A stretch of DNA of 50,484 nt, filler included, from Sphacelaria rigidula (taxonomy: Eukaryota), in NCBI GenBank assembly GCA_964200075.2. It is 3 parts of 3 records of this genome, joined end to end, with 100 filler letters (N's around TTAATTAATTAA, not from the genome) between each part and the next. Parts side by side here need not be neighbours in the genome. Positions count along the whole stretch, not along the records: positions 16,864 to 33,624 come from CAXNAA020001259.1; 2 more parts are not named here. One strand, 5' to 3'. Below the pieces are notes generated by a model. That model saw nothing but the letters and a program-made list of their open reading frames with translations, searched no databases and was not told where the DNA came from. Below are positions 10,986 to 37,000 of the stretch, one piece after another. The translations under genes and the position numbers were made by a program. Numbering within the stretch: position 1 is the stretch's first letter; every line of letters begins with the position of its first letter.

Positions 10986-13900
10986 ATACGGGCTTTGGCG
11001 TTGCCGGCCCTGCTATCGCTGCTGGTGGATCCGATTCTGTCGCTGGTGGATACGGCCTACGTTGGCCGTGGGCTCGGAGCGATTAGTCTTGCCGCTCTAG
11101 GTACAGCAGTATTCAAGCAGCGGTATACTGTAGCAATTGTTTTCGCCGTGTACAATGAGCCCTTCGACTCGCAAAGTGTGCGAAGAAGTAGCTGGGGCCT
11201 GAGGAGCTGGAGTAGCTATCGCAACAAGAAAAAAATCCGTTACAGCGGCCTTAGGTTCGACTGCGTGGCCTTGGGGGATCTCCGTTGCGGGAGTGTTTGT
11301 GCGCAAAAACCCTGAGAAATTGTATTGGCATCAACGGACTACTATATAGAATGAGCTACTTCACCCGGTCAAACTGTTTGAAGTTGGCTGCAACAGGAGT
11401 AAGTAAGCTGGAACATCCCTTCGTGTTTTTTCAACGGCTAGTTAGTTTCACCATCACCACCAACAACAACAACGACAGCGACAACGACAGTTATTAACTT
11501 TTCAGCAGTTATGTGCTGCCGTCACTATTGTAACAGAGGGCTCACTGTCGAGCTGTCGTTGCGTTCGTTCAAACAGGGCCAGTGTGGTGTCCAGTGTCTG
11601 TCCCCTGGCGCTACCGTCGTACCAGCTGTGTTTGGAAGGCCCGTTTATACCCCCCTTTCCTACAATCATCACAGGGATGCTTTACAGTACGCTAGGTCGT
11701 TTTCGCATTCGTTGAGATTCAGAAGGTACTCCCGTTATATGGTGCCTCCGTGCCCACGCCTTCGTGTGCTCCCTCGTCCCTTTCCCTTTTCGGTCTCTCT
11801 TCGTCGTTGTTTGGGGCGGCCGACCAAGGTCCTTGCACCAGCATTTTCCACTTCTCGTTCAACACCTTCCGCTCGGTTACCCAGAGCACAACATCCCTCG
11901 TCAGCACCAGCCTGGCAGCCGGCAATAAAACCAAAGCAGGTACTTAACGCTGGGATCGTCTAGGTTGAGTTTTAGGGTTACGAGGAGCGCTGGGAAGTTG
12001 GGGCTTGATGGCGTTTACCTGGCTATTGATGATGGCTGGTCTTGCCAGAGAGTCTCATGATGTGTAAAGTAGCACTTTGTTTCTAATGTGAACACGCACT
12101 TTGACCCCCCCCCCCCGAAAAAAATGTTTGAACAAATGAAATGATGACCTACTTTTTTGTAAAACGTGTACTCAGGGATCAGTTAATGTGTGACAATCAG
12201 CAATCAATATTCAACCAATGTACGCCTTACACGTCCTCTCCTCATAACGTGGTATCCAAACTTACCAAACTCCCCGGCAGGCCAGATCGTGCAGCAGATG
12301 TATGTGCTGGCGTTCATGCTCGGCTGCTTGCTCATGACGGGCCTGTATACCCAATCGTCCCGCGTTCTGGCTATCATGGGCGCCGGTCCTCAGACAACGT
12401 TGTTTCCCCAGGCGTCAGCCTACCTCACGGTGCGTCGAGCGTCTCAGAAGGAACCACAACTAGATGCACGCGCGTGCGGGCCAGTATAGCCAAGGTTGAG
12501 AGGATGTCTTGACAGCCTCGTGTCGGACGGTCGGAAGAAAAGTTGACTGCAACGTACGGTGTTTCGTAGTATCGCTGCTGCATCAACTGCTGCCGCTGCC
12601 GCTGCTGCTGCTGCTGCTGCGTCGTGTTTCGTGTCTGCTTTCACACGAAGTCTTCGAGTGTCATCACTTCTCTCAGCTGTTTCCCCTGCGTATGTACATC
12701 CCGCCGCTGCAGACTCGAGCACTGGCAGCGCCAGCCGTTTTGATCATCATGGTCAGCGAAGGCGTATTTCGTGGACATGCTGACACACGTGCTCCGGCGG
12801 TGGCGGCGTTGGGTGCCGCGTTAGCGAACGTTGTGATCGATCCTATATTCATGTTCGTGCTGGGCTGGGGCATCGCAGGTGAACGCCTCGATCCTCTGAC
12901 AGCAGCGGATTCTGTTGAAGCGCAAGTTTTGTCTAGCCGCGCGTTTCGAATGCTCTGTACCCCGCTCTATACAACCTCGTTTAGGCCCTGTTCTGTACGT
13001 TGCGTGAGCCGTTCTACAATACGCCCGCTTCCGCGACGTACTCGGGAGATAGGCTCGCGCGTTCTCGTTGGTCGTCTCAAATAACAAAGCTCGACGTGGT
13101 ACGGTCACAAAGGCAATGAACGGCTTGTGTGTGTGTCAGCGTTGTACTGATTCGTCGTATAACCACCGAATATGTTTTGGGGGACAGAGCCTTGCCCCTT
13201 CTTCTGCTGCTTTCATTGACCGTTCATCGAGCTGTATGCTCGTAGAGGACTCCGACGCAATCCTCTTCTTCCTCTCGGGCGCCGACGCCACATTTCGATG
13301 GAACGTTGGGTTGACCCTACCGAATTCATTCGTTCGGATGCACACATGAATGAAGTCCCCAATCGTCTTGGTATTACCCCCCTTCTGAACACCATCACAT
13401 GACCCCGCACCAGGTGCCGCGGGGGCAACAGCGCTAGCGCAGTACCTGGCGATCGGCATCTACGGAACGCTGTTGTGGCGTGGGGCCCGCGCCGGGAAGA
13501 TGGCGGTGCCCTTTTTTTCTCGCAAGCGTTCGGCAACGAAGAGCGATGCTGATGGCGGTTCCTCGTCGGGGGACGGGGAAAGGGTACAACCGTTACAGCT
13601 GTTGGTGTCCGTCGTGTCTGCTAACACGGCCATGCTCTTGAGGTGTGTACGTTCCTTGGCGTCGAACGTTCCAAGGGTAGTTCGGGTAGGGTATACCCGA
13701 TACTTGGTATTTTGAATAGTCATACTCTAGGTACCCAAACATTGGGGTAGAGTATTGAAATCGTACCCAACATACCCATTTTTGGGGTAGGGGTATTGAG
13801 GTCGTACCCAAGTGATACTTTATACCCAGGTAATGCTGAGAGTGCTTCACCCATATTCGGGTAGAGTATTGAGGTCATATCCAAGTGATACTCAACACCC

Positions 13901-16763: not shown

Positions 16764-16863
16764 NNNNNNNNNNNNNNNNNNNNNNNNNNNNNNNNNNNNN
16801 NNNNNNNTTAATTAATTAANNNNNNNNNNNNNNNNNNNNNNNNNNNNNNNNNNNNNNNNNNNN
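16764..16863. other. Assembly gap (100 bp with artificial TTAATTAATTAA linker)
   Basis: N run with a central ttaattaattaa. Confidence 0.98.
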
Positions 16864-17024
16864 GACGATCTGACTCGAAATTTCGAGCAACAAATGACCC
16901 AAAATACCCCCCCCCCTATCGTAGGATGACTCCCACCTGTACATGTATGTAATAATAGATTGCTCTGTTTCGCATCGCGCTTCCATTCTTTTCCTTTTCC
17001 TTTATTAGGCTACTTGTTATGTAT

Positions 17025-17320
17025 AAAAAAATATAACTTGTTGAAAAGTGCTTTTTTGACCCTTCTCCGTCGTTTTTGCCCCGAAAAGAGGGATCAGGGG
17101 ATGTTGACACCTTGGAATGACTTGCTCTACTCGCTGAGACCGTTCCAGAGCCCCTTTGCGTTTTCCGTAGGTCACAGTTTCGTTCTTGGCCAAACGTTTA
17201 TTTTCAATAACAAACGATAACAAACGATCAAGGTTTAAAAAAATATAACTTGTTGAAAAGTGCCTTTTCGACCCTTCTCCGTCGTTTTTGCCCCGAAAAG
17301 AGCACCCGCCGTATTTACGC
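17025..17320 (+). repeat. Copy of one arm of the 700-1265 palindromic element, with a local direct duplication
   Basis: gacttgctctactcgctgagaccgttccag matches 833-862. aaaaaatataacttgttgaaaagtgc...ccccgaaaagag occurs twice (~17025 and ~17237). Confidence 0.75.
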
Positions 17321-17419
17321 CAGCGCTGGCCAAAAAACAGAACCTGCCAGCAGTCTAGAACCAGCCCTACATCGAATTTGTGCAGACCCGCCGGTCCTAT
17401 CAACACCATTTTCGAATCC

Positions 17420-18530
17420 GCCCGTGCACAACAGAGCCGGCACACCATTTTTGAACCCATCCACGCGAACAGAGCAGGCACATAAGGCATGCCATAAAAC
17501 GCACACCCACAACACATCTCACACGCACACATGCACTGACGAACCACCACTAGCTAGCCGCAAAAGCAACAGCAGCAGCAGTACTGTGGTACGGAAACTG
17601 CCGTTGAACTTATCGCACACGCTTCACGCACCTAGCAAGCGACTGGACCATCACGTACTCTCGTGTGTCTGCATCAAATGTTGTGTGTTCGGATCAAATG
17701 TTTGTAGTGAGGGTATATTCCAGCGACAATACAGGCAACTGAAGTATGCACTCTCGTGTGTCAGGATCAATTGTTGTGTGCTTGGATCAATTGCTTCTAG
17801 TATTTAGTACAGAGAGTGCTGCGTAGCATTGCCCCCAACCGCAGACAGTAAGTAGTAGTAGACAGTACCGTGCGCTATACAGACGATACTGAGCGGGACG
17901 GTGGCATTTACTGCTCTGAAAGCCGTGCCGTGAGCACAAGTCAGTTCGACCATCAGGACGACAGCAGATGGTTTGCTGATGTCGCCATGGAAAGGGTTTT
18001 CAAGACTGCTCTCATTGTCCCCAACCACCAACACACCAACACAACAAACGCGGCGAAGGACAGAGAGACAACGGCGAACACACCCGGAATATAAAATATA
18101 TCTTCACTACAAGCATTTGATCCGAAAACACAACAAATGATCCAAACACACAAGAGTACGTGATGATTCAGTTGCCTGCTAGGCACGTGAAGCGTGTGCG
18201 ATAAGTTCAACGACGGTCTCCGTACTACAGTACTGCTGCTGCTGTCGCTTTTGCGGCTAGCTAGTGGTAGTTCGTCAGTGTTGTATGTGTGTGTGTGTGA
18301 GCTGTGTTGTGGGTGTGCGCGATGTGGCATGTCGCCTGCTCTGTTTCGGGTGGGTAGGTTGAAAAATGTTGTGCCAGCTATGTTGTGCGCGGGCGTGAAG
18401 CGTGTGCGATAGTTCAACGGCGGTCTCCGTACTACAGTACTGCTGCTGCTTTTGCGGCTAGCTAGTGTTGGTTCGTCAGTGTATGTGTGCGTGTGAGCTG
18501 TGTTGTGGGTGTGCGCGCTGCGGCATGCCC
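17420..18530. repeat. Long inverted repeat (arms ~17420-17720 and ~18095-18390, partial extra copy 18395-18530)
   Basis: ctgacgaaccaccactagctagccgcaaaagc...gttgaacttatcgcacacgcttcacg vs cgtgaagcgtgtgcgataagttcaac...gcttttgcggctagctagtggtagttcgtcag. The + ORF 17250 and - ORF 17953 give near-identical peptides, confirming the inversion. Confidence 0.85.
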
Positions 18531-18904
18531 TACCCCGAGGGCGTGTTCTTCCGTAGTAGTACAGCAGCAACAGCAGCTGGACGCCTTTGATTTTGCAAGA
18601 AGAGAACGTGTTCAGGTTCTAAAAAACACTGCAGAACTGCTGTGTTGTCTTGTGTTCAGTGTAGTACTCTGTACTCCATTTACCACTGCAGAATCGTGTT
18701 GTGTTCAGTGTAGTAGCTTGTACTCCAGATAACGGGGTCACGTTTTGAGTAGTTTTTGAAAAGTTCTGCTTTTTTTACAAGTCCTCGGAAAGTTCTGCTT
18801 GTTTTTCTGCCACAGAAATCCAATGCCGAGTCTGGAATAGCCTGAGACAACAACCAATTTGAGACTTGGAATGTTTCTCGGTGATATCGAGAAAAATCCA
18901 CAAC

Positions 18905-19540
18905 ATCTGGGCGAGCTGTAGGTGAGGCGCAAACGCCGAAACATTCACCTGCAAACTCTGCTCCAGTGCACTGTAAGTTGACATCGCTAGAAGGACACTA
19001 CGATCACCACCTTGCCGGCTGCCAGACTGTCAGGACGTAGCGTTCGCTAGCATTGCTACTGTCTGTACGGGGGTGTTGCCCCCTTGTGAGGTACGTTTTG
19101 GAGCATGATACTAGATGAAGAGCATCCTTCCTTGTACATGGGCACAAAACGCTGGGGGTTCTCAGAACGACTGCCAGAGCAGTAGACTTCATCACTTGGT
19201 AGTTCAAGACAGTTCTCGAAATTTTACGGCTTGTGGGCAGGTGCAGTATTGGATTTCAGTGTTGACACCGAAATTCGGATCTTTAACCTCTTGACCCCGA
19301 GGCTTGGTCACCTGCCGAATCGGCATCAATATTCACTTGAAAAAATTATGCGTGATCCAGATGAACTACCCTACTCCTGGCGTACGCAGAACGCGTTTTC
19401 GTCTACATCGGCGCCTGGGACGCCGATTCGAGGTCTGGCAACGCACACTTCGACTAGGGAGCAAGTTGCACCCCCCGTGCCCGAGGGTTCTCGGTATGTC
19501 TTCGTTGGGGTTGGGGTTAGGGTTAGTGTTCTTCGAAATG
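18905..19540 (+). repeat. Dispersed repeat homologous to 3920-4330, with a TTAGGG-like tract
   Basis: Shared blocks: gagctgtagg; gaatcggcatcaat...atgc.tgatccaga; atcggcgcctg...ggggttagggttag. Confidence 0.65.
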
Positions 19541-21238
19541 CATTAGCACCTGCGCAAACCATGAATTTCCGAGAAATAGCTGTCAACTACCAAGTGCGAA
19601 AGTCACCCAAGATTTCGAGTATGATGTACATCATCCTTGTAGATGGGGCACCAAACGATGGGCTTCTCACCCACGACTTCGATTTGGAGGATGATACTAG
19701 GTGGGCAGTGGCAACTGCTGTGCGTGCAGGTAGGTGCCCCTTGGAGCAGGATGCGTTTGGTGTCCGTCCGACGAAGTTATCCCCCAAAATCCGAAATCGA
19801 TAGGGGTTTTAGACTGGAACAATCTAGCAAAAACACTGCCGCAAGAATTCCGACGCAAAAACGGAGTCGCAAAAAAACATTTGTTCGAATTTTTACCCGC
19901 AGCAGAAACCAACTTCACTTTGGCAAATTGGAACAGATGGTGCTGATCTCGTCGTTTGCTTGCCTTCGCCGGCACAATAAGGGACAGGGTTATACTACCT
20001 GCCCGTGTATGGCGTTCATAACTGTGGTAAACATCTTCCTCGCAGCTTCTCTGTGACACGGGGGGGCAGTCGGACAGGCTAGGGCGTGATTGACCGGCTC
20101 TCTCGGGATGCTGCAGCAGCACACGAGTAGAAATACCGACTGTAGAAAGCCCAGTGCATAGATTGCAGCATGCTTGCTCTCTGTGAGTTGTATGCGCAGA
20201 TACACCCACTTGAACCACCAGCTGAACACTTTTCAGACGTTGCGGTAGCGTGCACTCGTAGCAGCAGTGCGGGTAAGTAGAGGAGCTACTGGATTGTTCG
20301 TGCTCCTCACTTCGAACGTGATTATGTCTGCAACCGACGACCACCGTGCTTGACCCCAACAGCTCCAACATCGCTGCCGGGGCACATATCGTCTAAATAG
20401 ATCGATTCCGCCAATCCGCGGTGCTCTTTACTCCACGACGTAGCCCAGGGCGTCACTAGCAAGGTTCCTGATGATTCTCGCATACTTGCGAGCGCCACGA
20501 CGTGCGCCGAGGGCAGCTCTTCGGAGTATTGGGCTGCCGTCCGAAATATTCGGCGTTCGCCAAACGTGGGTCTTGGCGAAAAAATCTAGCCGCTTCATTT
20601 TCGGACAATGTCAAGCGCCAGGTGTGAAAACGCCCAAACTCTCGGCGATCCCCGAAAAACCTGTGTCGATAATAACGACCCTAAGTTGCATGTGCACTTG
20701 GCTTGGCCCACGACCGATTTTAGGAGTTCTTCACCAATTTCCACATACACGTCATCCACCTGATTGTGTCAAAATATATGGTCTGTCACTTCGAAGACAC
20801 GAATTCGGAACTGGGAATGACGTGAGCAGTTTTTGGCGATCGAGATGGGGGTCATCCTCAAGGGATTCAGGACGGAAGTCAGATTCTCTATACAAGACAA
20901 AACATGAGTCTCTCGTGTCAGGCTTCGAAGTTATGGCATCGTCATGATGACGCTCGCCCAAACTGCCAATTCGTCGCTGTACCGGTTTCACCACCCTTCG
21001 CCGCGCGCTACCACGCGGCATCCGCTACTGCGAGTGTGCATGCATTTCCAGAAAGATGGTGCCCACTGCACAATGTTGCGTCGACAAATACCTGGTGGAG
21101 AGTCCTGAGGATGGGGACGTGGTAAAACTTCACAACCTGACAGAAATTCCCCCACACAAGAAAACAACGCAACACGTTCATAGAGCACTTTTCCTTCCAG
21201 AGCACCGATCCTGCAAGCCAGAAAACTGCAAGGGCAAT

Positions 21239-23896
21239 CTACGCAACGAGATCGGTGCATGGAGGGGCAACATCCATCACCTCGGATATTTGAAGAGGGG
21301 GGCTAGACAGTCCTAGCTCCAACTTCACGTGTGCGTCTTCCGTTGCCTCTCCGGACTCCACATCTTCGCACACGCCAGGGTGTCTTGGTAACACCGCTAG
21401 CGAACCACGGAGCCACATCATACGATTTTCACTACTGCCATCGCTCGAGCTGCCACTGCCGCCGACGATACAGTGACCTCTTGAAGGGGCAGCCCTCTCG
21501 CTACCCTGGCTCACTCCCTTGCGAGTACTAGCATCAGAAGGGGTTGCAAGTTCCACCTTCACTCCAGTCTCTGCCGTCGCCTTCGACGGCACCCCATCAG
21601 AGCCTGAGGGTGATTGTCCCGAGGCTAGCGGCGGCACTGCATTGCCCTGCCTGGAGCTAAGGCGCACACTACGACGAGTACTCATACCGTCGCTTGCTCC
21701 AGAACCCAAGTATGCTGCGCGGTTGCGTTTGTTGCCTCGTGCATCAGCAACAAAGCCACCGTCATCCTCCGTCGAGCTTCGGTTGTAGGCGCCCACCCCT
21801 GTGATAAACCCTGCTGAAATGATAACTCTGGCCGAGTTGTGTGCAGCACCACGTTGTCTACAGAACTTTACCATACCGACGTCGCACTTTATGTAGACAC
21901 CCCATTCGGAGCCACCCTCATTCCCGCAGTTACTTTCCACTATATCCACCAAATCTACCGTTCCCCCCGTGGCATGCTGAGAAGATATCTGTGGCTTCTT
22001 GCTCTCGGCAATACCATGGGACGGAGACTGAGTTGAGTCGTCGCAGCTGCACCTCTTTTGTACCACATTCACCATTCCGGCTGTGGAATGCTGGGGACAG
22101 AACTGCGCATTTGCGCTTCCCGCTACACCCAACGGACACCCAGGGCAATATTCGTGGCCGCATGTCTCGCTCACCACGTTCACCATGCCCAGAGAAGGAT
22201 GCCGACAGCAGAACTCTGCCTTCTTGCTCCCCGTCGCACCATATGACGGCTGCTTGGTGCAGCCCTCGTGTCCGCACTTCTTGTTCCATAGTTGCACCAT
22301 TCCTGAGTCAGCATGCTGGGAGCAGAACTTCGCCTTCTTGTCTCCGGCTACACCACATGACGAACGCTTTGAGCAGCCCTCGTGGTCGCACTTTTGGCCC
22401 CTCACGCTCACCATTCCAGGAGAAGCATGCCGAGAGCAGAACTCCGCCTTCTTACTTCCCGCTGCACCATAAGACGGGTTCTTGGAGCAGCCGTCGCGGC
22501 CGCAACTCTTGTTTCTGACATCCACCATTTCGAGAGGAGCATGCTGGGAGCAGAAGTCCGGCTTCTTGCTTCCCACTGCACCATAAGACGGACGCTTGGT
22601 GCAGCCCTCGTGGCCGCATGCCTTGCTCACCACGTTCACCATGCCTGGAGAAGCATGCTGGAAGCAGAACTCTGCCTTCTTGCTCCCCGTCGCACCATAT
22701 GACGGCTGCTTGGTGCAGCCCTCGTGTCCGCACTTCTTGCTCCATATATGCACCATTCCCGGGGGAGCATGCTGGGAGCAGAACTTCGCCTTCTTGTCTC
22801 CGGCTACACCACATGACGAACGCTTTGAGCAGCCCTTATGGCGGCACAGTTGGCCCCTCACGCTCACCATTCCAGGAGAAGCATGCTGAGAGCATAACTC
22901 CGCCTTCTTACTTCCCGCCGCACCATACGATGGGTTCTTGGAGCAGCCGTCGCGGCCGCAACTCTTGTTTATGACATCCACCATTTCGAGAGGAGCATGC
23001 TGGGAGCAGAAGTCCGGCTTCTTGCTTCCCACTGCACCATGCGACGGACGCCTGGAGCAGCTCTCGTGGCCACATTTCTTGCTCACCACGTTCACCATGC
23101 CTGGAGAAGCATGCTGGAAGCAGAACTCTGCCTTCTTGCTCCCCGCCACACCAAATAATTGGTGCTTGGTGCAGCCCTCGTGTCCGCACTTCTTGCGCCA
23201 TATATGCACCATTCCCGGGGGAGCATGCTGGAAGCAGAAGTCCGCCTTATTGCTTCCCAATGCACCATAAGACGGATGCGTGATGCAGCCCTCGTGGCCG
23301 CACAATTGGCCTCTTACCTTCACCATTCCCGCAACCGCATGCTGGAAGCAGAACTCCGCCTTCTTACTTCCCGCTGCACTATAAGACGGTCTCGTGGAGC
23401 AGTTCTCGTTGCCGCACTTGTCGCTACCCACATTCACCATTCCCGGAGGAGCATGGTGGAAACAGAATTCCGCCTTCTTGCTTCCCTCTGTACCATAAGA
23501 CGGCCTCTTGGAGCAGCCCTTGTTGCCGCACTTTCTGCCCTTCACGCGCACCATTCCCGGAATTGCATGCTGGGAGCAGAATTCCGCCTTCTTGCTTCCC
23601 TCTGTACCATAAGACGGATCCTTGAAGCAGTCCTCGTTGGCACACTTTTGTCCCTTTACGTTCACCATTCCAGGAAAAGCATGTTTGTAGCAGAATTCCG
23701 CTCTCTTGCTCGCCGCTTCACCAAAAGACGGCTGCTTGAAGCAGCCCTCGTGACCGCATGTCCGGCCTCTTACCTTTACCATTCCCGGAGAAGCATGTTG
23801 GAAGCAGAACCTTACCTCCTTTTTCCCGGCTACATCATAGGACGGCCGCTTGGAGCAGCCCTCGTGGCCACACGTTTTCCTCACTACATCCACCAT
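21239..23896 (-). CDS. EsV-1-7 cysteine-rich repeat protein (about 16 tandem 38-aa C-x4-C-x16-C-x2-H units plus a low-complexity C-terminal tail)
   Basis: Uninterrupted ORF (open from 23968; first ATG at 23896, MVDVVRK). Unit consensus KKCGHEGCSKRPSYG.AGSKKAEFCSQHA.PGMVNV is characteristic of the EsV-1-7 domain family expanded in brown algae. No introns are needed. Confidence 0.92.
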   Translation of the reverse strand: MVDVVRKTCGHEGCSKRPSYDVAGKKEVRFCFQHASPGMVKVRGRTCGHEGCFKQPSFGEAASKRAEFCYKHAFPGMVNVKGQKCANEDCFKDPSYGTEGSKKAEFCSQHAIPGMVRVKGRKCGNKGCSKRPSYGTEGSKKAEFCFHHAPPGMVNVGSDKCGNENCSTRPSYSAAGSKKAEFCFQHAVAGMVKVRGQLCGHEGCITHPSYGALGSNKADFCFQHAPPGMVHIWRKKCGHEGCTKHQLFGVAGSKKAEFCFQHASPGMVNVVSKKCGHESCSRRPSHGAVGSKKPDFCSQHAPLEMVDVINKSCGRDGCSKNPSYGAAGSKKAELCSQHASPGMVSVRGQLCRHKGCSKRSSCGVAGDKKAKFCSQHAPPGMVHIWSKKCGHEGCTKQPSYGATGSKKAEFCFQHASPGMVNVVSKACGHEGCTKRPSYGAVGSKKPDFCSQHAPLEMVDVRNKSCGRDGCSKNPSYGAAGSKKAEFCSRHASPGMVSVRGQKCDHEGCSKRSSCGVAGDKKAKFCSQHADSGMVQLWNKKCGHEGCTKQPSYGATGSKKAEFCCRHPSLGMVNVVSETCGHEYCPGCPLGVAGSANAQFCPQHSTAGMVNVVQKRCSCDDSTQSPSHGIAESKKPQISSQHATGGTVDLVDIVESNCGNEGGSEWGVYIKCDVGMVKFCRQRGAAHNSARVIISAGFITGVGAYNRSSTEDDGGFVADARGNKRNRAAYLGSGASDGMSTRRSVRLSSRQGNAVPPLASGQSPSGSDGVPSKATAETGVKVELATPSDASTRKGVSQGSERAAPSRGHCIVGGSGSSSDGSSENRMMWLRGSLAVLPRHPGVCEDVESGEATEDAHVKLELGLSSPPLQISEVMDVAPPCTDLVA

Positions 23897-26312
23897 TCTC
23901 GGCCACGAACGCTGGGAGCATAAATCTGCCCTTTGATTCTTACACTGCGCAATTAGCGCTTGGAGCACCGATCGTCGCTGCCCTCTTTTTTCGCCACGCC
24001 GGCCATGAGCTACTCCTTCGCGTGGTGGTGCGTTGTCGACAACAAACTGCTGAAGGTAGAACGTTTGTCAGACACGTCGGAGACGGGATTGCAAGCTGGA
24101 GGTGAAACCGAGTAGATATGCTTGGCAAACGAATGAGACTCTTGTTCGCCCGTACCTTCTCTACACAAAAAACACCATATTCAAACATCAGATTCGCCTG
24201 TGATTGGCCGCGGTGGTGTTTACTTCACGAAGAAAACCTCCCTTCGAAAGTGATTCGGGGTCTCGGGAACTGGATCTGAAATGTAAAACGTCCTCGTGGG
24301 CTTCCCTACCACCGTTTGGGTTGTCGAAAAAGCACATGGCTCGCAGCGGAACATGAGAGTGCTCAGCACAACCATTGCACGATGGTAAAAAAAGACGCGC
24401 TGCATCCCACGGCTTGAGATATAGATAATTTATCTCAATGATCAGATGGTAGACCCCGCGTATCTGAAACCTACCATGTGGGTGAAACATTGGCGGGATC
24501 GTAGGAGGGGAGTGTCAAACGCAGGATGTTGGAGACATGAATCGCTCCCAATGGACTATTTACGCCTGCGGGATCTGCTGCGTCAGCCTTTCTGAATCTT
24601 GCCACCGCGCCGAGTCTCTGGTGACGGAGCTACCCAGGCGCTCCGTTGAGGCGAGGCGAAGTGTGTACTCTACTGTCGTGAAACCTTATTCAATATGCTC
24701 AAGAGTTGGTAATCGTTCGGCCGCGTGCCTTCTTTGACGCATGACTCATCGCTTTACATGATGCTTGGCAGATTGTGCCGTCTATGTGTAATTCATAATG
24801 AGCCTCAAAACCGGTCGTTTTGGGCCTTGTAACATCTGCGGATGAGACTTCCCGTCCCAATCAGACACGACTGTAGTGCACAAAAGAATCGGAATGGCAG
24901 AAGCAACGTGCATTCAAATAGATGGACACCACATGCAACTTGATCCCAACAATCAGATTTCGACACTCAAGATATCCTCGACAAGCGGGGTGTCCTCTGC
25001 ACCCTGGCGCTATCAACTGGAAAGAAGTGAACAAGGGTGTAGCAAAAAAACAAAGTGCACCTGCGGCAAAAACCATGCAGTCCTGCGCCGATAGAAAGAA
25101 AAATCGGAATATAATCTGAACCTTTATCACCCCCGCACACACTGCTACAAAACCCCACAACAGATTCAGCGATATGGGGTTGCTGTCTGTGGTTGCGAGG
25201 AGATGTGGGCAAACTTACAGCGCCTCGCAGCGCCTGCAGCGCGCGTGCTACCGTATTTCTCGAGTTGAGTCCTTATGCAGGCAATACGCCCAGCCGCTTC
25301 GCACAAATTGTCATGATCAAGCGGGTGTTCCAGTACAGATCAACATTCGTTTCCCGGCGCATCACCCTCCCATGTGCCGATGCAGTCGGAGCACGTGGAT
25401 GGGTTACTTTACATAAGCGTTTGCAGACGGAGCACGTATTTCTGGGCAGCGGGGCAGCCATTTCGGGTGCATTCTGACGAATGTGCCGAAATTCGTTCCT
25501 CGCCTCGACAATTTGTACAGTAGCCCCCCCTCCCCCCAAAAAACTGCCTGGTTTGGGGAGGCAAACTCTTCACGTAAATCGAAATGGAAAAAGCCGAGCA
25601 CAATGAGCAGCTGGGAATTTCCACGTTTGGGTTCGTCCTCGCCAATGTCGCCCATATGAGGCGATTTATGCAGCCTGAGCCCAAACATCTGGATCTGTAA
25701 GATCATTTATTTCGTGACAATTTTGAGCTATTCCATTGGGGGGGCTTTTGTAGAAAGTGTCCGTCGTTATCACTGTCCCATGCACCGCAGCCGTCGACGC
25801 CCGGGAAACATGCTGTTTGTGATGTCGGACTAGTTCCCCAAGTTTCACGGCTGCGCTCCCAGGGGCTGCGAAGAAATCTACGTGCAAAGATGCGGACAAA
25901 ATGTGGGGAAAAATAGTAGTCATCTGTGGCAAGATACATGAGGTGGGGTTGCGCCGCATATCCCACGTACGGCAACGTACTTGCGGTATGTGTCCTCTCC
26001 TCGGTAACACGGGAGAGGTCGGGAGATTTGGAAAAGATCTTGCGACAGCATCACTGTCTGGGTTTGGTACATAGTCCTTTGACGTCTTTCAAGGTGTCCG
26101 ATCGGACGCCAAAATTGGTTGTTCACCCAGGACCCCGACATCTCGGATATCGAAATCCAAATTTCCATGGCGTATAGTAGTTGTCAATAGCTACCAACAA
26201 GTGAAGAAATGGAAGCATACTTCGAAGATTTGGTGTGGATACGGAGATTTTAATTCTCCGGGTTCTCATTCCTAATAAAAGACCCATCCCCAATTTGTAA
26301 AATCACGTGTTA

Positions 26313-26790
26313 GGCCGTTTCTTCCGGTTCGTATTTTGTTTGGCTCGTATTTCCCGCTTCTAGGATATTTGACAAGGCTTTTGACCCCCAAACAGGGAAA
26401 ATCGCCACCACACGTCTTGGACACTTTGTATCACCCCACCGAGAGGGACCTAGCCCACTTTTCCGATTCGCTTGAGTAAGAAATTTCGAGAGCGGCCTCT
26501 GGACAAAATTACGAGGAAAACATATAATGCACAGTCTGTTGGTATTTCAGCTTGAAAACACGTACAGACTGTGCACCATATATTTTCCTCGTGTTTTTGT
26601 CCATAGGCGGCTCTCGAAATCTCTGACCCAAGAGAATCGGAAAAGTGGGCTAGACTCCTCTCGGTGGGGTGAGACAAAGTGTCCAAGACGTTTGATGGCG
26701 ATCTTCCCTGTTTGGGGGTCAAAAACGTTGTCAAACATCCTAAAAGTGGATAATACGAGCAAAACAAAGTACGAACCGGAAGAAACGGCC
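26313..26790. mobile_element. PIF/Harbinger (Tourist-like) fully palindromic MITE
   Basis: TTA|GGCCGTTTCTTCCGGTTCGTA ... TACGAACCGGAAGAAACGGCC|TTA: perfect 21-bp termini and a 3-bp TTA TSD. Arms pair along the full length (e.g. ttttgacccccaaacagggaa / ttccctgtttgggggtcaaaa). Confidence 0.92.
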
Positions 26791-26794
26791 TTAC

Positions 26795-27120
26795 ATATAT
26801 TAGTGGATCATATTGGAACTTTGCGATATATTGCCGGTGTAATATATATTGGTACCCTTGGACTGCACACGTATTGCGCGCCCAACATATACTGATGTCA
26901 TGAGACTGCATACATATTGCCCGCCCAATATATGTTGGTCCAGTGGGATTGCACACATTTTGTCCTATCAATACATATTGGGGCAGTGTGGGCGACGACA
27001 TTTTGCACGAGCAATATATATTAGGGTCGCATTGGTGAGCACATATTGACCTGTCAATATATATTGGGGCCGCGTGGGTGCCAATGTATTGGCCGGACAA
27101 CATATCTTGGGTATTATAAG
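26795..27120. repeat. CAATATATATTG-motif-rich block
   Basis: Dense atatattg / caatata motifs. The same pattern occurs at 29440-29745 and 30320-30970. Confidence 0.6.
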
Positions 27121-27964
27121 TATGGTGTGCGCTTTGAGAAAGCTCCAGACGCGATGGGTGCCGGTGCCCCAGATTGGGAAAAGCTTCAGAGGAAGCCGCA
27201 GAAGTTCGCGTGCATTGCTACGGAGAGTTGTCGAATGCGTGTGAAATATGCTTCGACGTATTTATACATATATATATATATATATGTGTGTGTATTGGCC
27301 AGAAAATGTGGTGACAAGAGAGGCGACCCCGTACATTTGCCTTTTGATACCTATCGGGTCACCGGTGCGGGGACGCCCATCCCCTTCACAGTTATGGGTA
27401 GGAATGGAGGCCCTAACGACCAAAAATAGGCACAAGATTTAAAATAAGAAATAACGCGGCAAAATACTAAACACGTCAGTAGATGGTCGGACCTGTGCCG
27501 AGGCCCTCACGAACACAACACACGTTTCATCACTTATTAAGTTGGTGTCGTATGGGAAAGCTGTGGCACTGGAGATCGCGCGGTTCTCGACACAGGAAGC
27601 AAGCCGGTCCACGGCACTTGACAGCCCCCCGCATACACACAAGAGGTAGGGGACCTAGTTTGATATTTGGCTGGCGTCGCGTCAGCGGCACGGAAATCCC
27701 CTCCCAGAGCGGAAAACACCTTATTTTAGTATATTTAGGTCATTTGCGAGTCAGCATCACGCGTAAGCGCAAAAACCAAACGAGGCGACATAGCTTAGGT
27801 GTGTGGGAAGCGCACGCAAGAAACCGCGGTCCAATCCCCCGCTTCGTTGCCGAGTTGTAAGCGTTGCGCGATCGGCACTTTTGGGTCGAGGATCAGTAGC
27901 GCCTTTCGAGGTCGAAGATGGCAAATTCAAAACAATCGGTGCGCATACTTCTTTTCCTGCCGCA

Positions 27965-28545
27965 AGCAAGTTGTGACAGCATGCACTTGGGTTGCGTGCC
28001 CCCAGGCGCTGCTTTGTTCTGGGCGGCTGTGCACAAGGGGCGAATTCGCCTTTCAACGGCGAATATCCTTTCAAGTGTCGAATTACAGAGGGAGAGCTGA
28101 CAGAAGAAAGACAAAGCTGGCGGCTGCTTCATGTCAGGGCTCCAGTGCAGAAGCCAAGGCGTCGAGAGCGATTTTAGTACGACTGTGTGCATTACATCTG
28201 CTGGCGACCGCGGTCATGTACTTCGTAACTGTCTGTATATACTATTAATAGTATCATAATGAGATGCAAAGTATGCTATGTTCGACAAGCTTCGTTTTGG
28301 GCTGCGTGTTTGTTTTCTGGCGGCGAGCAGTGTGTGACGGATGGCATTTCACCTTGTGGCATGCCACCAGCTGCTGCTTTGTTCTGTACGGCTGTGCACG
28401 CAGGGCAACTTCGCCGTTCAACAGCGAGTACCCTTCATGTATTGAGTTGCAGAGAGCGAGGTCACACGTGAACTTCGGTTGTTGCGTCTGAGGGTTCCAG
28501 AGGAGAAGCCAAGGCGCGAAGAGTGATTTTGATTTCCGACTGCGC
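27965..28545 (-). repeat. Diverged direct duplication of a ~210-bp, apparently coding segment
   Basis: 27970-28180 vs 28330-28535. The - strand peptides are KSLSTPWLLHWSP..LSLCNS..GYSPLKGEFAPCAQPPRTKQRL and KSLFAPWLLLWNP..LALCNS..GYSLLNGEVALRAQPYRTKQQL. Confidence 0.7.
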
Positions 28546-29747
28546 ACCATGTATGCCTAGGTCGGCAGAGCCACGATGTTTCAAGTGATTGCCTGTACAT
28601 ACTGAGAATTGGGAAAAATTGACGTTGAAGATGTTGATCTGGACAGGGAGAACCAGACCGTGGCCAAGCGACTGACAAGATGGGATTCCATCCACTCATG
28701 CCATGACCCTTATCCCATAGGGTCCATGAGAAATTCACTCTCGAATCCCGCAGTCATAGCTGTATGTAGGACATGCAGCGCGTAGGCAATCCGCACAGCA
28801 TGAACCTCTTGATGGTCAACATCATCAGGATCGTTCTCGGTACTTTTCGGATGTGCGACGCTGCTGCTCATGATCTCCGAATTTCCATACTTTCTCGTTC
28901 TAGTACCATGTCAGGCACGCCTTTCACTGCAGTGACGTTGGTGTGTAGCGGCCACAACAGCTGCTGTTCGTGCTCTTGTTTTGTTATCTTCGCAATGACG
29001 GTAAACGTGGGGTGGCAGCTCGGGGGCGTGTGCTTCCCGACTGGTGCAGACAGAAGCAGGACACTAGGGAGTTCAACAAGATTGTCCATTTACTCATGTG
29101 GAGCGAGCTTTCTCCCGAGAAACAAAATCACCTCAACACCGACCACTCCCAGGCTTGAATAAATGTACTAGAAATATTGTTCATTTCTTACGAGCCAAAT
29201 CGTCATTTGTAGGTGACGCGTGTACTTTCCACTGATATGATTCGTTGGATTACAGGCCACCTCTGACCCATGTAGCGTTCAGCTTGCACTTTACATGAAT
29301 ATAGTACCCAAAATCGGCCCCCATCCTTACCCATTACAGTATGTAATATATCTTGGCTAAACATCACGACGGAAAACGCGGGTCGATATGCGCCATCTGG
29401 TACCCCTGTGATCACTGGTGCTGTGTTGCTTATACCCTGGACAAAACAATATGTTCCAACATCATGCCAATACTTTAAATTGGAGACAGCGCAAATATTG
29501 CCCTTTCAATATATTTTGTGTTGAGGTGTTCTCGCAGACATTGAAGCAACAACATATGTTTCTTGTGTCATGATCGTGAAGTGATACATGCCAATATATA
29601 TGGACATGCGTTTGCTCCGGGAACATAGCATTCAATACATGTTGTGCATGCCGGCCGTGAAGGTATTGACGTGTCAATATAACTCTTCGATATAACTCGA
29701 AATATTGAGTCGAAGCGATGCGTGACATGTTGTTACCCTAATATATG

Positions 29748-30316
29748 CTCCCTCTGTTCCGGAATATAAGTCGATTTGAACAAAACGCAAAGAAAAATCA
29801 ACGTGGCGATCTTTCTTTGAAGTCGCGAAATCATTCCTACCTGGAACACAATGTTTTTTTCGAAAAAAACACTTTTTTTCAGTTATTTTTCCTTCACGTT
29901 CTTCTTTCGCTTGAAAGGTCCCAAGTTTTGGCACCCTGTCGTTTTTTCTCCGGTCAAAAGGGAGAATATTTTGTTTTTCCCTCAAAGTATCCGTCTACAG
30001 GTAGCCACATATGGTCACTTTCCACACAAAAAAAAGGTCGGAAAAAAAAAAAAACTTGCTCCGTACGGGAGAAAAAACGACACGCTGATTTTCTTTACTC
30101 ACCAGATATTTGGAAGACCCCCCTCGGGGATAAAAAGCCATGAAAGGGAATGAAAATTGATCATCCCCTATTTTTGGCCGCTTCTTCAACTGCACAACTT
30201 GTCCGAGCACGATGAAAACAAATGACGCAAAAATACCTTTTCTAACGCCCTCAAGTGCAAAACCGGACTCATTTCTGGAAAATCCAAATCAGACTTATAT
30301 TCCGGAACAGAGGGAG
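29748..30316. mobile_element. Stowaway-like (Tc1/mariner) MITE
   Basis: Perfect 25-bp TIR CTCCCTCTGTTCCGGAATATAAGTC / GACTTATATTCCGGAACAGAGGGAG. Flanks are TG / TA. AT-rich interior. Confidence 0.9.
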
Positions 30317-31038
30317 TATTGAGCACCAACCATGCAAAACTATGTTTTCAATATATATTGCGCATGTTCATCGCATGGCTTTCGTGCAGCCAATATATGT
30401 TGAGTATGCTCGCGGAGAAATGTATTGCGCGTTCTCGCCATGTGGTGATACACCTTTCGTTGGCGCCCGCGAACATTTGTTTCGCCCATCATACTGATTG
30501 CAATAGACTTTTCAATCTACACGTTGAATCAACATAATTGCTACACCAACATGAATTTTGACCGTCGGTTCCGTCGTGTACTGTCCACCAAATATATATT
30601 GGACGCATTGACGCGCGGCATGTTGGGGCGGCAATATGTATTGACGCTTGGGATGTCAAGTATATCGAATCGTCACTATATATTGACCTCGTGTGGCAGC
30701 CAATATGTCATTCGATAAATATATATATAATATATATATATATATTGGTGCCTTACCGCACCAAGATATTACTCGGCCAATACGTATTGAGGTGGCGCGT
30801 GTTGTGATATATTGTTCTGTCGATATATATTGCATGTTGCGAGCCTTGACAAATGGATGGCACGAGATATATTGGCGGGTCTCTCGTGCCATCATATTGT
30901 TCGCCCAATATATACTGACAACCCGACGCGTCGACATACTGAGCGGGCAAATATATTACATGTTTTATTGTCGAGGGTGTGATGTGTTTTGAATCCTTCG
31001 CATCTTTCGAGTTGAACTCCATTTATTTCATTTTTTTA

Positions 31039-31674
31039 CTTCCTTTTCTCCATAAGGAAAGGTACCTAAATTTGTACGGGCCCTTAACGATGTCCGATCG
31101 TTTTTTCTTTGCATGAACTCTACGGTGTTTTGGGGGTTGAGAAATTGTGCTTAAAATTTGCAGCTCGTGCTTGAACCATGCCACCGAACGGCTGCAAAAA
31201 AAAAAGTCGGCCCAAAAACGGACGTTTTTTTGCCCCTTTCGGAGGGGAAAAAAGTGTCGAAGAACACTTCGTAAGATGGGCGAAAACGACCTTAGTGTGG
31301 AGCACACCAGGGTTAGCGCGCGCGAGAGGGCGGGGACATCGGAAAGGGTGGTAAAATATGATCAAGAGGCCTTCGCGAAGGCGTGGGACTTCCTGGCAGC
31401 AAGCCCTAGTGACGGCGGGGGCAATTAAAAAAAAAAAAAAACGAAGAATCGATACTTTGTTTTCCCTCGGAAAGGGGCAAAAAGCGGCCATTTTTTGGGC
31501 CAACTACTTTTTTTTGCAGCCGTTCGGCGGCATGGTTCAAGCACGAGCTGCAAATTTTGAGCACATTTTCTTAACCCAAGAAACACCGTAAAGTTTATTG
31601 GAAAAAAAAAAACGATCGGACGTCGTCAAGGGCCCGTACAAATTTAGGTGCCTTTACTTATGGGACAGAGGAAG
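31039..31674. mobile_element. Stowaway-like MITE with ~230-bp inverted arms
   Basis: TA|CTTCCTTTTCTCCATAAGGAAAGGTACCTAAATTTGTACGGGCCCTT ... AAGGGCCCGTACAAATTTAGGTGCCTTTACTTATGGGACAGAGGAAG|TG. Internal arms aaatttgcagctcgtgcttgaaccatgcc / ggcatggttcaagcacgagctgcaaattt. Confidence 0.85.
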
Positions 31675-33624
31675 TGCGCGATCTCCTGCATGGGCCAGCG
31701 ACCGTTTTTTCCCCGTTTCCGGAAGAAAGAAGGGAGGGGGGGAAACCCGGAAGAAATGGCGCAAAACGCACGCATGTGCAAAACTAGCTTTTCGTTTTCG
31801 CTTCATCAGTGATGAGACTATACCTTCGCCTCGTTTGAAAGCATGTCCTCATGTTATCAGGAACGTTTAAAATGACAACAGGCAACATTCATGAAAATTC
31901 GGCCGACAAAGATACAAATTCGTCGAAATCGCCCTGAAGTTGGTCAAATTTGACTCAAATTTTCCCACAGTACCAACTCCGATTCTTCCCCATTTATCTG
32001 TCATGAGGATCTCCGTGAATGCATCGTTGCAGCGAAGCCAACTACAGCATCGCACACCATTCCGTTCAAAGTATATGATCCGCGCGCAAAACCTGATTTT
32101 TCTCATGTGTTGCAGAAAGTACAACTTATGGTCAGACAAGACAGGAATCCTGCAAGATATGCGTGGGAGACGCATGTGAGCAACAGCGTCGCCCTCCACG
32201 ACACGAAGGCCCATAGATATTTGCGGAGGTTGTGTTCCGTTTCACATATGCGGGAAAGGGGGAAGTTATGTTGGAATACAACCCCGTGCATCCCATATAT
32301 GTCGAAGAGTCGAGGCCGGTCCTTCATCTGAGTACGGAGACGCGCTCCGACACACTCCGGGGATGGTTGGAAAAGGGATTCGCCGGTGAAATACATGTTT
32401 CTGTGTCTCTGTAAACAACATAATTCGACATGAAACATCCTACAGAGCACAATCCATCGATTTCCTTTTCACGTCTTGCCCTTGGAATCCCTTAAATGGC
32501 GTGTTTACTGCGTCTGTGATGGTTTAAGAGACAACCAACTAGACTACTGACCAGTCAGCCCTGACTGGTCAGTAGTCACATACATCGTGCCCGCAGAGTC
32601 GTGGATGGGGTGTGAGTACAGGCACCCCTCATCATGGTCTTGGTGAACCATATATCCATGGGGAGGGAAAACAAAATTGCCAACACAGTCGACACGTGTC
32701 TTCCATTCGTCTCTTGAATAACTGTACCCCAAGTGCCGCCTGCGCCGTCGACAGTTCGGACCTGTCTCCACGATATTCCTTGCCATAGCCCCCAACCCGT
32801 AGCCATTACACAAACAACAGCGACCTACATCCTGCGTACCGGCACCACGATTGTGTTAGCCCCGGCGTCGTTCGATAGCGGGCGATGACGTGCGCCGGCA
32901 ACCCACCATCGCACAAGACGCGACGCCGAGTGAACACTGTGTCACCGACTTCGTCACAAATGCCGAAAAAGACCACATCCAATAGCCGAACCATCAGGTC
33001 AAACACGGGCAACCAACTTATTGAACACCATGGGAACGAACCGGGGACCCTGTCTGGCGCCATGCCAAGGTCATGAACGTCATGTGAGACCCCCTTCATC
33101 GCTCACACTTGCGGTGACCTGACGGGAAATGTATCACCGACGGCAAGCACGAGACAGTGCAGGCAAACGGCAAAACAGGTGGGGGTCGTGTTAAAATGAT
33201 GTCTGACAGTCATTAGGCGAGAGGGGGGCACCGATATTGCCGCCGTCTCCATCGGAAGAACAGCGAAATCATGCCACAACTTCCCCACCAGGAGTTCTTG
33301 CAACAACGCTACTGTTTGCGTTCTCTGCCGTTCCGCGTGATCGGTTCTCCAGTCGAACTGCTTTTCAAATACATACCCCCATGTATCCGTAACCGTATGT
33401 CGCAAGTCTCCTGTCCACGCATCACCCCACCCCACGAGCACATCGGGTCCATCATGATTACAGGCTGGTTCACGTTGATCACCCAAAATTGTGTCATTAG
33501 CAAATGCCTTCCGCAATACGCACCCAATAGTCGCATATATGGTCTCATACTGACCGCAATGAAGAGACGAAGAGGGTGACAGGGCCGGATTTTTCTTTGA
33601 GGCCGTAGCGGTGGCGCTATGGAC

Positions 33625-33724
33625 NNNNNNNNNNNNNNNNNNNNNNNNNNNNNNNNNNNNNNNNNNNNTTAATTAATTAANNNNNNNNNNNNNNNNNNNN
33701 NNNNNNNNNNNNNNNNNNNNNNNN
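33625..33724. other. Assembly gap (100 bp with artificial TTAATTAATTAA linker)
   Basis: N run with a central ttaattaattaa. Confidence 0.98.
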
Positions 33725-34049: not shown

Positions 34050-37000
34050 TTCCACTGTGGATCATGACCACAGGGAACCCTCGCTTTCCGTTGCTCCACG
34101 GGTTGGAGAAGGGCCCCCAGCAGTGATCCGGTCGGTAAGTCAAGAGCTCACACCGTCACGAAGCACTCCCGAGAACTTCCCACCAGCGACACGGCATGAC
34201 GGTACGCCTCAGGCATTGGATGTGCCACTACCGCCCTCTGTCCTCCCTCGTTTCCCCCTGATCCAGCACCATCAAGGAGGTCGAGGCGGAACGTGTCGAG
34301 TCACAAGATCACCCTACCTACTGTCGGTTCGTTGTCGCATTCATTCACGTCCAGATCCGCCACTGGCGAACTCACACCACGACAGTCTCATGCGGGTAAC
34401 TGACGATTCGTCCCCCATGTTTCCACTCTTGGCCCCCGACAACGTGTCTCCCGATGAATCCGTGGAGACCATGTCTATTTTTAATTCATGTGCTGATGTT
34501 TCGAACGTGAGCTCCGCTGATGCAGTCACCGGAACCACGTCCGACGACGAAAAATCGCCGATCCGTTTATCCACTACCGTAAATGATTCGAGAGGCGCAT
34601 CGCAGTGCAGGGTTGAAATTTCTGCTGACCCCACACTAGGAACATCCAATACCAAGCCCGCCGTGCATGCCCCCCCCCTACCGACATCACAGCCGGCCCC
34701 GCTTCCACCGCGACGGCCATCCCTAATGGTCACACTCCCACAACAGTGTACGAGATATGTAGCCCTAACACCCAACATTGGAGAATACCCAAGATCAGTG
34801 CCCACATCTCAAGGCCCCACAAAACCACCCTAGATATATCTCAACACATATCGATTCGTTGCCAAACTTATGGCCCTGGCATCACCAGGCTCGGGCTCCC
34901 CTCAAACCTTTCTCACCACCAGTTGCTGGCGGAACATGCTCCACACCGGCGCGGCCGATGACGAATGTCTGTCCGCTGTCCCCCCCCACGCACCTTCGGT
35001 AGCTTCGGGTCAGGTTCTACGTTTGAGTGCCACCCAGGCTGTGCGATCAAGTGTTCAGCTCTTCAATGATACGCACCCCATGGCACGACCGTCTGTTTGA
35101 GCTTTGATTGTTCTGCGCAATGCCATGGCATTCGATGGTTTGTTGGGCAGAGAATAGCTGGTTGCGTTTTCCGACACATACATATGTTCGGCAGGAAGAT
35201 GTATTCGTGAAGGACGGACGCCCGCAATTTTTCCGACGTCTCCGCATTGACTGAGCACCCAACCAGTTGTTGAGGTATGCTTCGGCTCCGTTTCTACGTA
35301 CACTTTTGTCTGATATATGTCCCCGCATCGGTACCACTTCCCCAACTGATGTAGAGCAAAATGCCGACTGCAATGGACCAGTTTCAGATGATACAATGGT
35401 CTTGACCGTGTCGGATGACGATGCGGAAACCGACATTCCTCAAAAACTGTCGGATTGTTTCCAGCATGAGCAGCGAGCAATTTGTTTGCGACTATGGAAT
35501 GACGTCCCAACATACGTCTGTCACATTACCTTCAATCTCGACGGTGCCGGTTGGACTGCAGCGGTCATCGACAAACTTGTAGATGTTCTGACCCGCTATG
35601 CCGCGCGATTTTTCACCTCACCTCTGGATTTGTGTCGTTGCACGGTGGCCTCGTATAAAATCACCGTGCCATAAAGAGCGCTCCCCAGTTCTACACGCTC
35701 GTATCGCACGAAACCGCTGCTGGCGGATCAAGTACAAGTAGTCATAAATAGTCACCTAGCTGCGGAGATCATTCGCGTACGCCTCCACCGAGACTCAGGG
35801 TTTGAGCATGAGTGGGCTGACACCGAGACGTCAGGTTTGAGCATGAGTGGGCTGACATCTTCTGGCCCGAAAACGGCGCTCGGTGGCTTGCCCCCTCGAT
35901 CCCTTTTTCGGTTTCTGGGGATGCCAACACCAATGCAAGTACCCTATTTGGATATGAACGTTTCGGAGTGACGAACCGCTGCATCAATGTTGCCGCTGCA
36001 CCGGAGCTCCCCGTCCCCCCATCTGTTTTCACTGTACAAGTACGCGATCTCAGATCTAGTAGAACGAGGGTGGACAGCAAGAAGAAGTAAGTTTGTTTTC
36101 CCGCCAAGATTGGGCGCGAGAACAATATGCCGAGCTTGCGTGCCGCTCAGCAATACTGTACCTGTCCCAAAATTTCCCACTCCCATTCCCCTCCGCGGAT
36201 ATCCTCAAACCCGTCGGACGGCGCCGGGCATCCACACAGGATGACGTTGTTGAGCTGGCCCGCAAGGCGAACTGCACATTGGTGCTGACGGCATTGTACG
36301 TTTGGTTTGCAAACCGACGCAGGCACCTCAGTCACATCACCCTACCGGTAGATGTGCTCTATTACACCGTCAAGAAGCTCTTCGCATTCACGTGCCAATG
36401 CTGATGCGACCATGGATTTTGCACGAGTGTCATTCCAACGCTTCGACTGACCCAGACTATCGAGCGATTCTACTGGTGGATAGGTATCAATCAATGTGCC
36501 CGTTGGTAGTTACGTCGCTGTTTTATCTGTCATGCGCGCAAGACGTCTCCAGACCGTGCGTTGGCCAGTCACGTCCATGCCGCCCCAATGAGCTCGCTGA
36601 AGTTATATATTGGGACGTTTTGGGACCTTTGCCTCTCACCGAGAGTAGCAACAAGTACATAATGTTGATTACTGATCGATTAAGTCGCCCCTCCGGCATG
36701 CATGCTGTCTCAGAAACCAACTATTCCGCGGAGGGCGCTGTCAATACCCTGGTGTACAAATATATGCCACAATGGGGTGTCCTCCGGAAAGTTTTGTCCG
36801 ACAACGGCCAACACTTTTCTAGCAAAAATTCTGCTACGGTTAGTGCACTCTTGGGTTCCCACCGCATCTTTACAAGCCAGTACCATCCCCAAGCGAACGG
36901 TGAGACGGAACGTGTCAACCAAACGATGGCGCAAATGCTGTCAGCCGTCACAAACGAATGGCAAATAGATTGGGATCTGCATCTGCCCTTCGTCCAAATG

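Follow-up and report, generated by a model that had tools for sequence, protein, structure and literature searches.

A long EsV-1-7 repeat gene of Sphacelaria rigidula enlarged by recent block duplication, with a candidate role in DNA binding

The EsV-1-7 repeat (Pfam PF19114, InterPro IPR043822) defines the largest gene family expansion specific to brown algae, and the family includes the developmental regulator IMMEDIATE UPRIGHT (IMM) of Ectocarpus. The study of Denoeud et al. describes the family as very large and arranged in tandem clusters, counts 95–101 EsV-1-7 genes in Ectocarpus, 234 in Saccharina and 335 in Ascophyllum, and presents IMM as five repeats following a unique N-terminal domain, by which its orthologues are defined (10.1101/2024.02.19.579948). 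A second source reports all Ectocarpus EsV-1-7 members to be without any other Pfam domain (10.64898/2026.04.27.720984). In the literature, zinc binding by the unit is a proposal, and the link of the repeat to phaeoviruses, brown algae and IMM, which the first-pass annotation of this DNA had taken as established, is in print. Here we describe an EsV-1-7 gene of Sphacelaria rigidula found in a window of 50,484 nt (the whole stretch of DNA that was analyzed), which consists of three joined parts. The gene lies on the minus strand of the part at 16,864–33,624 (CAXNAA020001259.1); the parts are not necessarily genomic neighbours, which bears on the flanking open reading frames (ORFs) outside that part. 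Judged by its sequence, the gene is a new, unusually long and otherwise ordinary member of a well-described family. Our preferred reading, to which we give a probability of about 0.55, is that the window holds a large coding exon of a nuclear brown-algal EsV-1-7 gene that recently grew by a block of units, and that its product (~885 residues if translation begins at Met58) would be a nuclear, zinc-stabilised DNA-binding array and a regulator resembling IMM.

The whole array is held in a frame that is open from stop to stop over 942 codons (21239–24067, minus strand). Across 22152–23920, Tandem Repeats Finder reports a period of 114 bp (15.5 copies, 72% matches), and for the same interval also periods of 228 bp and of 456 bp (3.8 copies, 83% matches). 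Sixteen stretches of the encoded protein match the Pfam family EsV_1_7_cys (PF19114; E-value 1.1e-239, 774.3 bits against a cut-off of 25); as a sequence match this is far beyond chance, and the family identity, for which a hidden Markov model (HMM) check had been proposed, is thereby confirmed. No other Pfam family, C2H2 fingers included, matched the protein at E ≤ 0.01. The pattern C-x4-C-x16-C-x2-H is present in 15 of 15 units (units 1–15), with 60 of 60 Cys/His ligand positions intact, and M1, V2, C9, C14, C31 and H34 are invariant among them. The 38-residue spacing holds in 15 of 16 unit intervals, unit 16 having x15 instead of x16. About 16 intact 114-bp units had been counted at first, with the strand unstated; the array stands, on the minus strand, with 15 intact units, a sixteenth without one codon and two degenerate ones. 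Third-position GC within the array is 0.66 in frame versus 0.52 in the other frames. A six-frame scan of the 50 kb window with an HMM of the unit found no second gene of the EsV-1-7 kind. The features of the gene are the following.

23897..24046, minus strand: 5' leader of the large exon, read from the sequence as a frameshifted decayed unit 0 and an upstream ORF
ATG at 24006–24004, stop at 23953, minus strand: upstream ORF of 17 codons, with a peptide like the first half of a unit
22187..23896, minus strand: units 1–15, intact, 114 bp or 38 residues each, starting at Met58 (23896), the probable start codon
22757..23212, minus strand: higher-order copy A, units 7–10, with 91–95% DNA identity to copy B, from a comparison at a 456-nt shift
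22301..22756, minus strand: higher-order copy B, units 11–14, from unit identities and the 456-nt shift comparison
22187..22300, minus strand: unit 15, 92% identical to unit 11, beginning a third, partial block copy
22076..22186, minus strand: unit 16, 37 residues, one codon deleted and all four ligands kept, nearest to units 8 and 12 (71 and 70%)
21848..22075, minus strand: units 17 and 18, a degenerate array cap, unit 17 without Cys2 and Cys3; kept in tail-bearing relatives
21242..21847, minus strand: C-terminal tail of 202 residues, rich in Ser, Gly and Ala, with three conserved short motifs
within 21704–21754, minus strand: tail motif VAD.RG.KR.R (FVADARGNKRNR at 21719–21754), from the alignment of tail relatives
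21551–21562, minus strand: tail motif VKVE, in the [MVI]KVE column of the tail relatives
21317–21328, minus strand: tail motif VKLE, conserved in tail relatives
21239–21241, minus strand: stop codon, the end of the frame

Met58 is the likely start codon, because in annotated relatives the protein begins at once with the opening residues of a unit, MVNV or MVDV. In the leader, the remnant of unit 0 is split by a frameshift, with its first half forming the upstream ORF and its second half lying in the main frame.

We compared the window protein (P0001) with 96 homologues of 518–1649 residues (P0002–P0097). All 96 carry PF19114, with best identities of 49–58%, and the best Ectocarpus match reaches 53–58% identity over 17–28% of the query. 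As in the family at large, where a 38-residue period is typical, the protein is built of tandem 38-residue C-x4-C-x16-C-x2-H units and has no other Pfam domain. It differs from the family in that its 17 units exceed those of any of 130 relatives examined, and in its clear, young higher-order repeat of four units. The exon codes nothing before unit 1 except the decayed unit and so shows no counterpart of the N-terminal domain of IMM, as judged without a direct comparison with the IMM sequence; an upstream exon is possible. In the Pfam lists of the homologues, EsV-1-7 units are also combined with a reverse transcriptase in P0096 and with PF14223 in P0072. PF24906 (WRKY19 zinc finger) matches inside the EsV-1-7 arrays of P0036, P0042, P0058 and P0062, a sequence match that hints that the EsV-1-7 and WRKY19 zinc finger repeats may be related.

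The growth of the array can be followed in its DNA. Units 7, 8, 9 and 10 are 93, 93, 95 and 91% identical to units 11, 12, 13 and 14, respectively, and unit 15 resembles unit 11 (92%) more than unit 7 (85%). The duplication of units 7–10 as 11–14 in a 456-bp block and the return of unit 11 as unit 15, both noticed in the first reading of the sequence, are thus as described, and so is the string GTEGSKKAEF shared by units 3 and 4. These two units are 82% identical, and the remaining pairs range from 66 to 81%. At a shift of 456 nt, the block of high identity opens at about 23242, with the last 30 nt of unit 6, and extends to where the first part of unit 12 is set against unit 16. The identities show at least one recent in-register duplication of a four-unit, 456-bp block and, from unit 15 on, the beginning of a third copy. 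Between the block copies, non-synonymous divergence (dN) is 0.070 and synonymous divergence (dS) 0.087, a value by which the duplication is recent. Both the identity matrix and the sliding comparison show that recombination enlarged the array, as had been proposed, and the mode of growth is unequal recombination of the four-unit block, as is usual for in-phase tandem repeats. Counted as 17 units, the array exceeds those of all 96 homologues (5–12 units) and of 34 further relatives found through the tail (0–9 units).

Four sequencing runs were compared in this work: X1 and X8 are DNA, and X5 and X6 come from one study, with an RNA label that is only guessed. In X5 and X6, contigs at 22476–23145 carry residues of the sister copy at three places (Ile/Arg at position 5 of unit 9, Arg/Ile at position 5 of unit 13 and Ser/Arg at position 6 of unit 11). 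Such swaps could stem from gene conversion between the block copies in other individuals or from chimeric assembly of near-identical sequences, and we counted them as neither.

The C-terminal tail places the gene in a subfamily. An exhaustive phmmer search with residues 704–942 gave the 34 tail relatives at E ≤ 0.001, of which 18 reach E ≤ 1e-10 (best 1.5e-52, with 52% identity); a word-index search with residues 640–942 gave no match, owing to its length band. Four of these relatives, looked up by name, are unnamed proteins of S. rigidula itself (CAM9333076.1, CAM9673890.1, CAM9749683.1 and CAM9625022.1; P0098, P0100, P0108 and P0120). The tail relatives have 0–9 EsV-1-7 units, some of them being fragments, and then the same cap unit and tail. 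One Ala, two Arg and one Glu are invariant in their alignment and Lys residues are nearly so, all within VAD.RG.KR.R, [MVI]KVE and VKLE. The four S. rigidula proteins share with ours the run of units from the first Met, the degenerate cap unit and the Ser/Gly-rich tail with its three motifs; they differ in having 3–8 units against 17 in the window protein and a tail identity of 31–52%, and none is a high-identity orthologue. P0098 matches the window array in units 16–18, down to the deleted codon and the absence of the third Cys from unit 17. Shared as they are with a protein of 52% identity, the degenerate 3' units form an old and conserved terminus of the subfamily. Decayed units had been reported at both ends of the array: the 5' one is indeed a frameshifted remnant, and those at the 3' end are this old cap.

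Hints on what the array may bind come from its distant relatives. The homologue alignment contains a conserved C-terminal block of ~150 residues (RPD ... E.DE.QH ... NPD; invariant P, D, E, D, E, H, R, R, N and P), which a motif search found in 48 of the 96 homologues and an HMM in 53 of 96, seven of them outside the training set. Among the twelve proteins scanned against Pfam, the block gave no significant match, the sole trace being Hjc (E 0.29). For P0018, which has both array and block, a structural model reached a mean predicted local distance difference test score (pLDDT) of 87.4; Foldseek returned matches at E 0.05–0.3, the best being Vsr endonuclease and the catalytic domain of I-Bth0305I, all of them too weak to show a relationship. 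Most of the matches we take to be nucleases of the PD-(D/E)XK type. The proteins that join array and block are mostly unnamed metagenomic sequences, with one from Pedinophyceae. They resemble the window protein in having the same repeat with the same period, in arrays of 5–12 units, and appear to end in a Vsr-like nuclease ('EDxHD', I-Bth0305I-type); the window protein has no C-terminal nuclease, and its tail is unrelated to the block in alignment. A full-text literature search returned no publication treating the array-nuclease architecture in its title or the opening of its abstract. A second fusion is known from the literature: PMC12477816 reports that a Tc1/mariner transposase of Ectocarpus has gained an EsV-1-7 domain at its N-terminus.

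The array itself is strongly basic, with 90 Lys and Arg against 42 Asp and Glu (net charge +48, isoelectric point 9.35). From this charge and the domain fusions of the relatives, DNA binding by the array is plausible. A nuclear DNA-binding function is suggested because of the fusion partners of the relatives together with the tail motifs, and we hold with moderate confidence that the protein most likely works in the nucleus as a basic, zinc-stabilised repeat array bound to DNA. We propose the following mechanism. Each unit would bind one zinc ion through C9, C14, C31 and H34 and fold into a small knuckle largely devoid of regular secondary structure, and the array as a whole would be flexible and strongly basic, like beads on a string. 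The KRxR patch of the tail would bring the protein into the nucleus, where two psi-K-x-E motifs of the tail may act as SUMO-type regulatory sites. The array would bind DNA lengthwise, as a nuclease-free relative of the proteins that combine an array with a Vsr-like nuclease, and, like IMM, the protein would regulate chromatin or transcription rather than serve as a fast-evolving defence sensor. Since the duplication, the new units have drifted near-neutrally at the usual variable positions of the family, with the scaffold held by purifying selection.

An alternative that we consider doubtful is that the array is a zinc-knuckle scaffold for protein or RNA, not for DNA, and that the nuclease and transposase fusions of its relatives represent another use of the repeat. 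The predicted fold leaves room for this: AlphaFold2 modelled units 7–10 at a mean pLDDT of 86.3 with a predicted template modelling score of 0.49 and no helix of at least four residues, and the low overall score suggests a flexible string without a fixed superhelix that could track a DNA groove. Set against it are the 53 of 96 homologues in which the array stands at the position expected of a nuclease's targeting domain, the N-terminal position of the repeat on the transposase (PMC12477816) and the net charge of the array.

Further searches added little. A search of solved structures by sequence gave no match for units 7–10, and a profile of the homologues gave one meaningless match (E 0.88). 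Scanning IMG/VR with a four-unit alignment (228 columns, its register slipped) gave 69 pattern matches, of which none was confirmed, and PHROGs and NCBIfam contained nothing informative for the window protein and four homologues. A bolder extension of the DNA-binding reading, which we regard as improbable, is that brown-algal arrays are nuclease-free descendants of giant-virus 'natural zinc-repeat nucleases', in which each 38-residue unit would read a fixed short stretch of bases. If this were true, EsV-1-7 would be a third programmable protein reader of DNA besides C2H2 fingers and transcription activator-like effectors (TALEs), and block duplications such as that of units 7–10 into 11–14 would give nuclear regulators new, long specificities.

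The first-pass annotation had gone in a related direction, comparing the array with PRDM9, KRAB-ZF and TALE arrays and pointing to variable residues right after the second Cys. All nine of the hexamers it listed there are present; the variability of this segment is merely moderate. The most variable positions across the units are 3, 5, 36, 17, 8, 23 and 6 (2.66 to 1.89 bits), mainly before Cys1. Variation is spread over ~14 of the 38 positions, which are also variable family-wide, and position by position the entropy tracks the values for 215 units of other proteins (Spearman 0.71, p=6e-7). To set apart variable, middle and scaffold positions, we used the variability in other proteins, so that the classes are independent of the window array. 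Over 105 unit pairs, dN/dS is 0.72 at variable, 0.36 at middle and 0.20 at scaffold positions. In the five recent (young) pairs, the corresponding values are 1.36 (21 non-synonymous versus 5 synonymous differences, p=0.63), 0.61 and 0.38. The block copies together differ by 8 synonymous and 24 non-synonymous changes (dN/dS 0.80, Fisher p=0.65), and all 60 ligand codons are intact at a median pairwise dN of 0.27 among units. In strain X8, which is ~0.9% divergent, no stop codon interrupts the frame, whose differences comprise 5 synonymous and 7 non-synonymous changes. Constraint is graded, with purifying selection on the scaffold and roughly neutral change elsewhere. Because the counts of differences are small, diversifying selection is neither established nor ruled out by them; the proposed check of entropy and dN/dS across units came out as near-neutral drift, and the claim of recognition positions under diversifying selection is not supported.

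We therefore consider it quite unlikely that the gene is an adaptive, recombination-diversified recognition array of the PRDM9 or KRAB type, perhaps tracking transposons or viruses. Such a role would suit the recent block duplication, the length of the array (the greatest among the relatives examined), the ratio above 1 at family-variable positions of the recent copies and the concentration in unit 15 of three of the four non-synonymous X8 differences in the covered array. It would also suit the 669–721 contigs per run that fall on the array at a likeness of at least 90%, which indicate many young paralogous units in the genome. Yet no dN/dS value differs from 1 (p=0.63–0.65), the variation mirrors the family instead of being confined to the 2–4 positions seen in C2H2 and TALE arrays, and X8 diverges about as much in the covered pieces of the array (6 differences) as in the flanks (13 in 1470 bases). 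None of our tests connects the gene with transposons or viruses that it might target.

With C2H2 arrays (KRAB-ZF, PRDM9) and TALEs the window array shares small tandem modules that expand and contract by unequal recombination and, through the fusions of its relatives, possibly the role of a DNA reader; this is resemblance, not membership. It differs from C2H2 arrays in its Cys3His ligands, its different spacing, its 38-residue period and a model without the beta-beta-alpha fold. TALE repeats, in turn, are helical, 33–35 residues long and variable in two residues, whereas the window array has 38 residues, a non-helical model and ~14 variable positions. The analogy thus fits the mode of growth and may fit the kind of ligand; it does not extend to the fold, to a few specificity positions or to demonstrated adaptive evolution.

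It is very unlikely that the gene is a young, redundant paralogue turning into a pseudogene with merely drifting repeats, as the dN/dS of 0.80 in the young copies, the frameshifted 5' unit and its upstream ORF, the degenerate terminal units and the large, tandemly clustered family (10.1101/2024.02.19.579948) might suggest, given the open frame of 942 codons, the intact ligand codons, the scaffold dN/dS of 0.20, the tail motifs conserved against relatives of 52% identity, the age of the end units shared with P0098 and the X8 frame free of stops.

Several points weigh against the reading we prefer, that of a nuclear, zinc-stabilised DNA-binding array. The putative zinc site is derived from residue spacing alone. 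There is no in-frame ATG 5' of Met58, and the leader carries an upstream ORF. Third-position GC in the tail is 0.53 in frame and so not raised, and a dN/dS of ~0.8 in young copies is equally expected of a decaying gene. The HMM of the nuclease block has no match in the window protein, in 13 named brown-algal homologues or in the 34 tail relatives, and the suggested link to DNA is guilt by association from distant relatives. Finally, the KRxR patch is presumably a nuclear localisation signal, and VKVE and VKLE, two psi-K-x-E motifs, are what we take to be SUMO-type sites, in each case by consensus pattern with no tool behind it.

The gene is no new kind of system, and its value lies in being a convenient object for testing what the EsV-1-7 repeat binds: it offers a long phased array, a dated internal duplication, a conserved tail with nuclear-type motifs and close paralogues that differ in unit number. 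If the repeat reads DNA, as the nuclease and transposase fusions of its relatives suggest, such arrays would show how new specificities arise via block duplication.

Some hints on transcription come from X5 and X6. Their contigs span 20800/20965–22236 and 23588–24046/24048 (frame and 3' flank) at a depth of 40–68, and ~30 further letters past 24046/24048 have no match to the window. Upstream of this point their depth falls to 0–4, and the DNA runs X1 and X8 remain even at ~30. The break adjoins a pyrimidine tract and cagcag, which resemble a splice acceptor. We take this as very faint evidence for a transcript that has a non-coding exon upstream. None of the four runs has a contig across the whole array.

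The locus is intron-rich host DNA, with a GC content of about 0.50. Among 27 flanking ORFs we found one weak MatE match and one weak integrase match, and no viral-type or other strong family; we therefore rejected a provirus context. The MatE transporter fragment (12500–13081, plus strand, E 0.0023) is probably an exon of a neighbouring gene, and the integrase-core match (36254–37039, plus strand, E 0.00075) is probably a decayed retroelement. At 40909–45314, two blocks of 205–240-bp tandem repeats are inverted to each other, with arms that are 78–93% complementary (Tandem Repeats Finder rows 40962–41614, 42704–43095, 43829–44568 and 44416–45309). Their outer ends carry open frames that begin with MGNAFSKS (plus strand, left, 40909) and MGNAISKS (minus strand, right, 45314), and an ORF within them (44230–45033) has no Pfam match. 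The two blocks may represent two convergent genes for repeat proteins, or satellite DNA. The pattern of 44 N, 12 bases and 44 N occurs at 16764–16863 and at 33625–33724, 16.9 kb apart, and coincides with the filler joins of the stretch. At 26308–26795 there is an inverted repeat of 240 nt, 87% complementary, with 8 nt between its arms.

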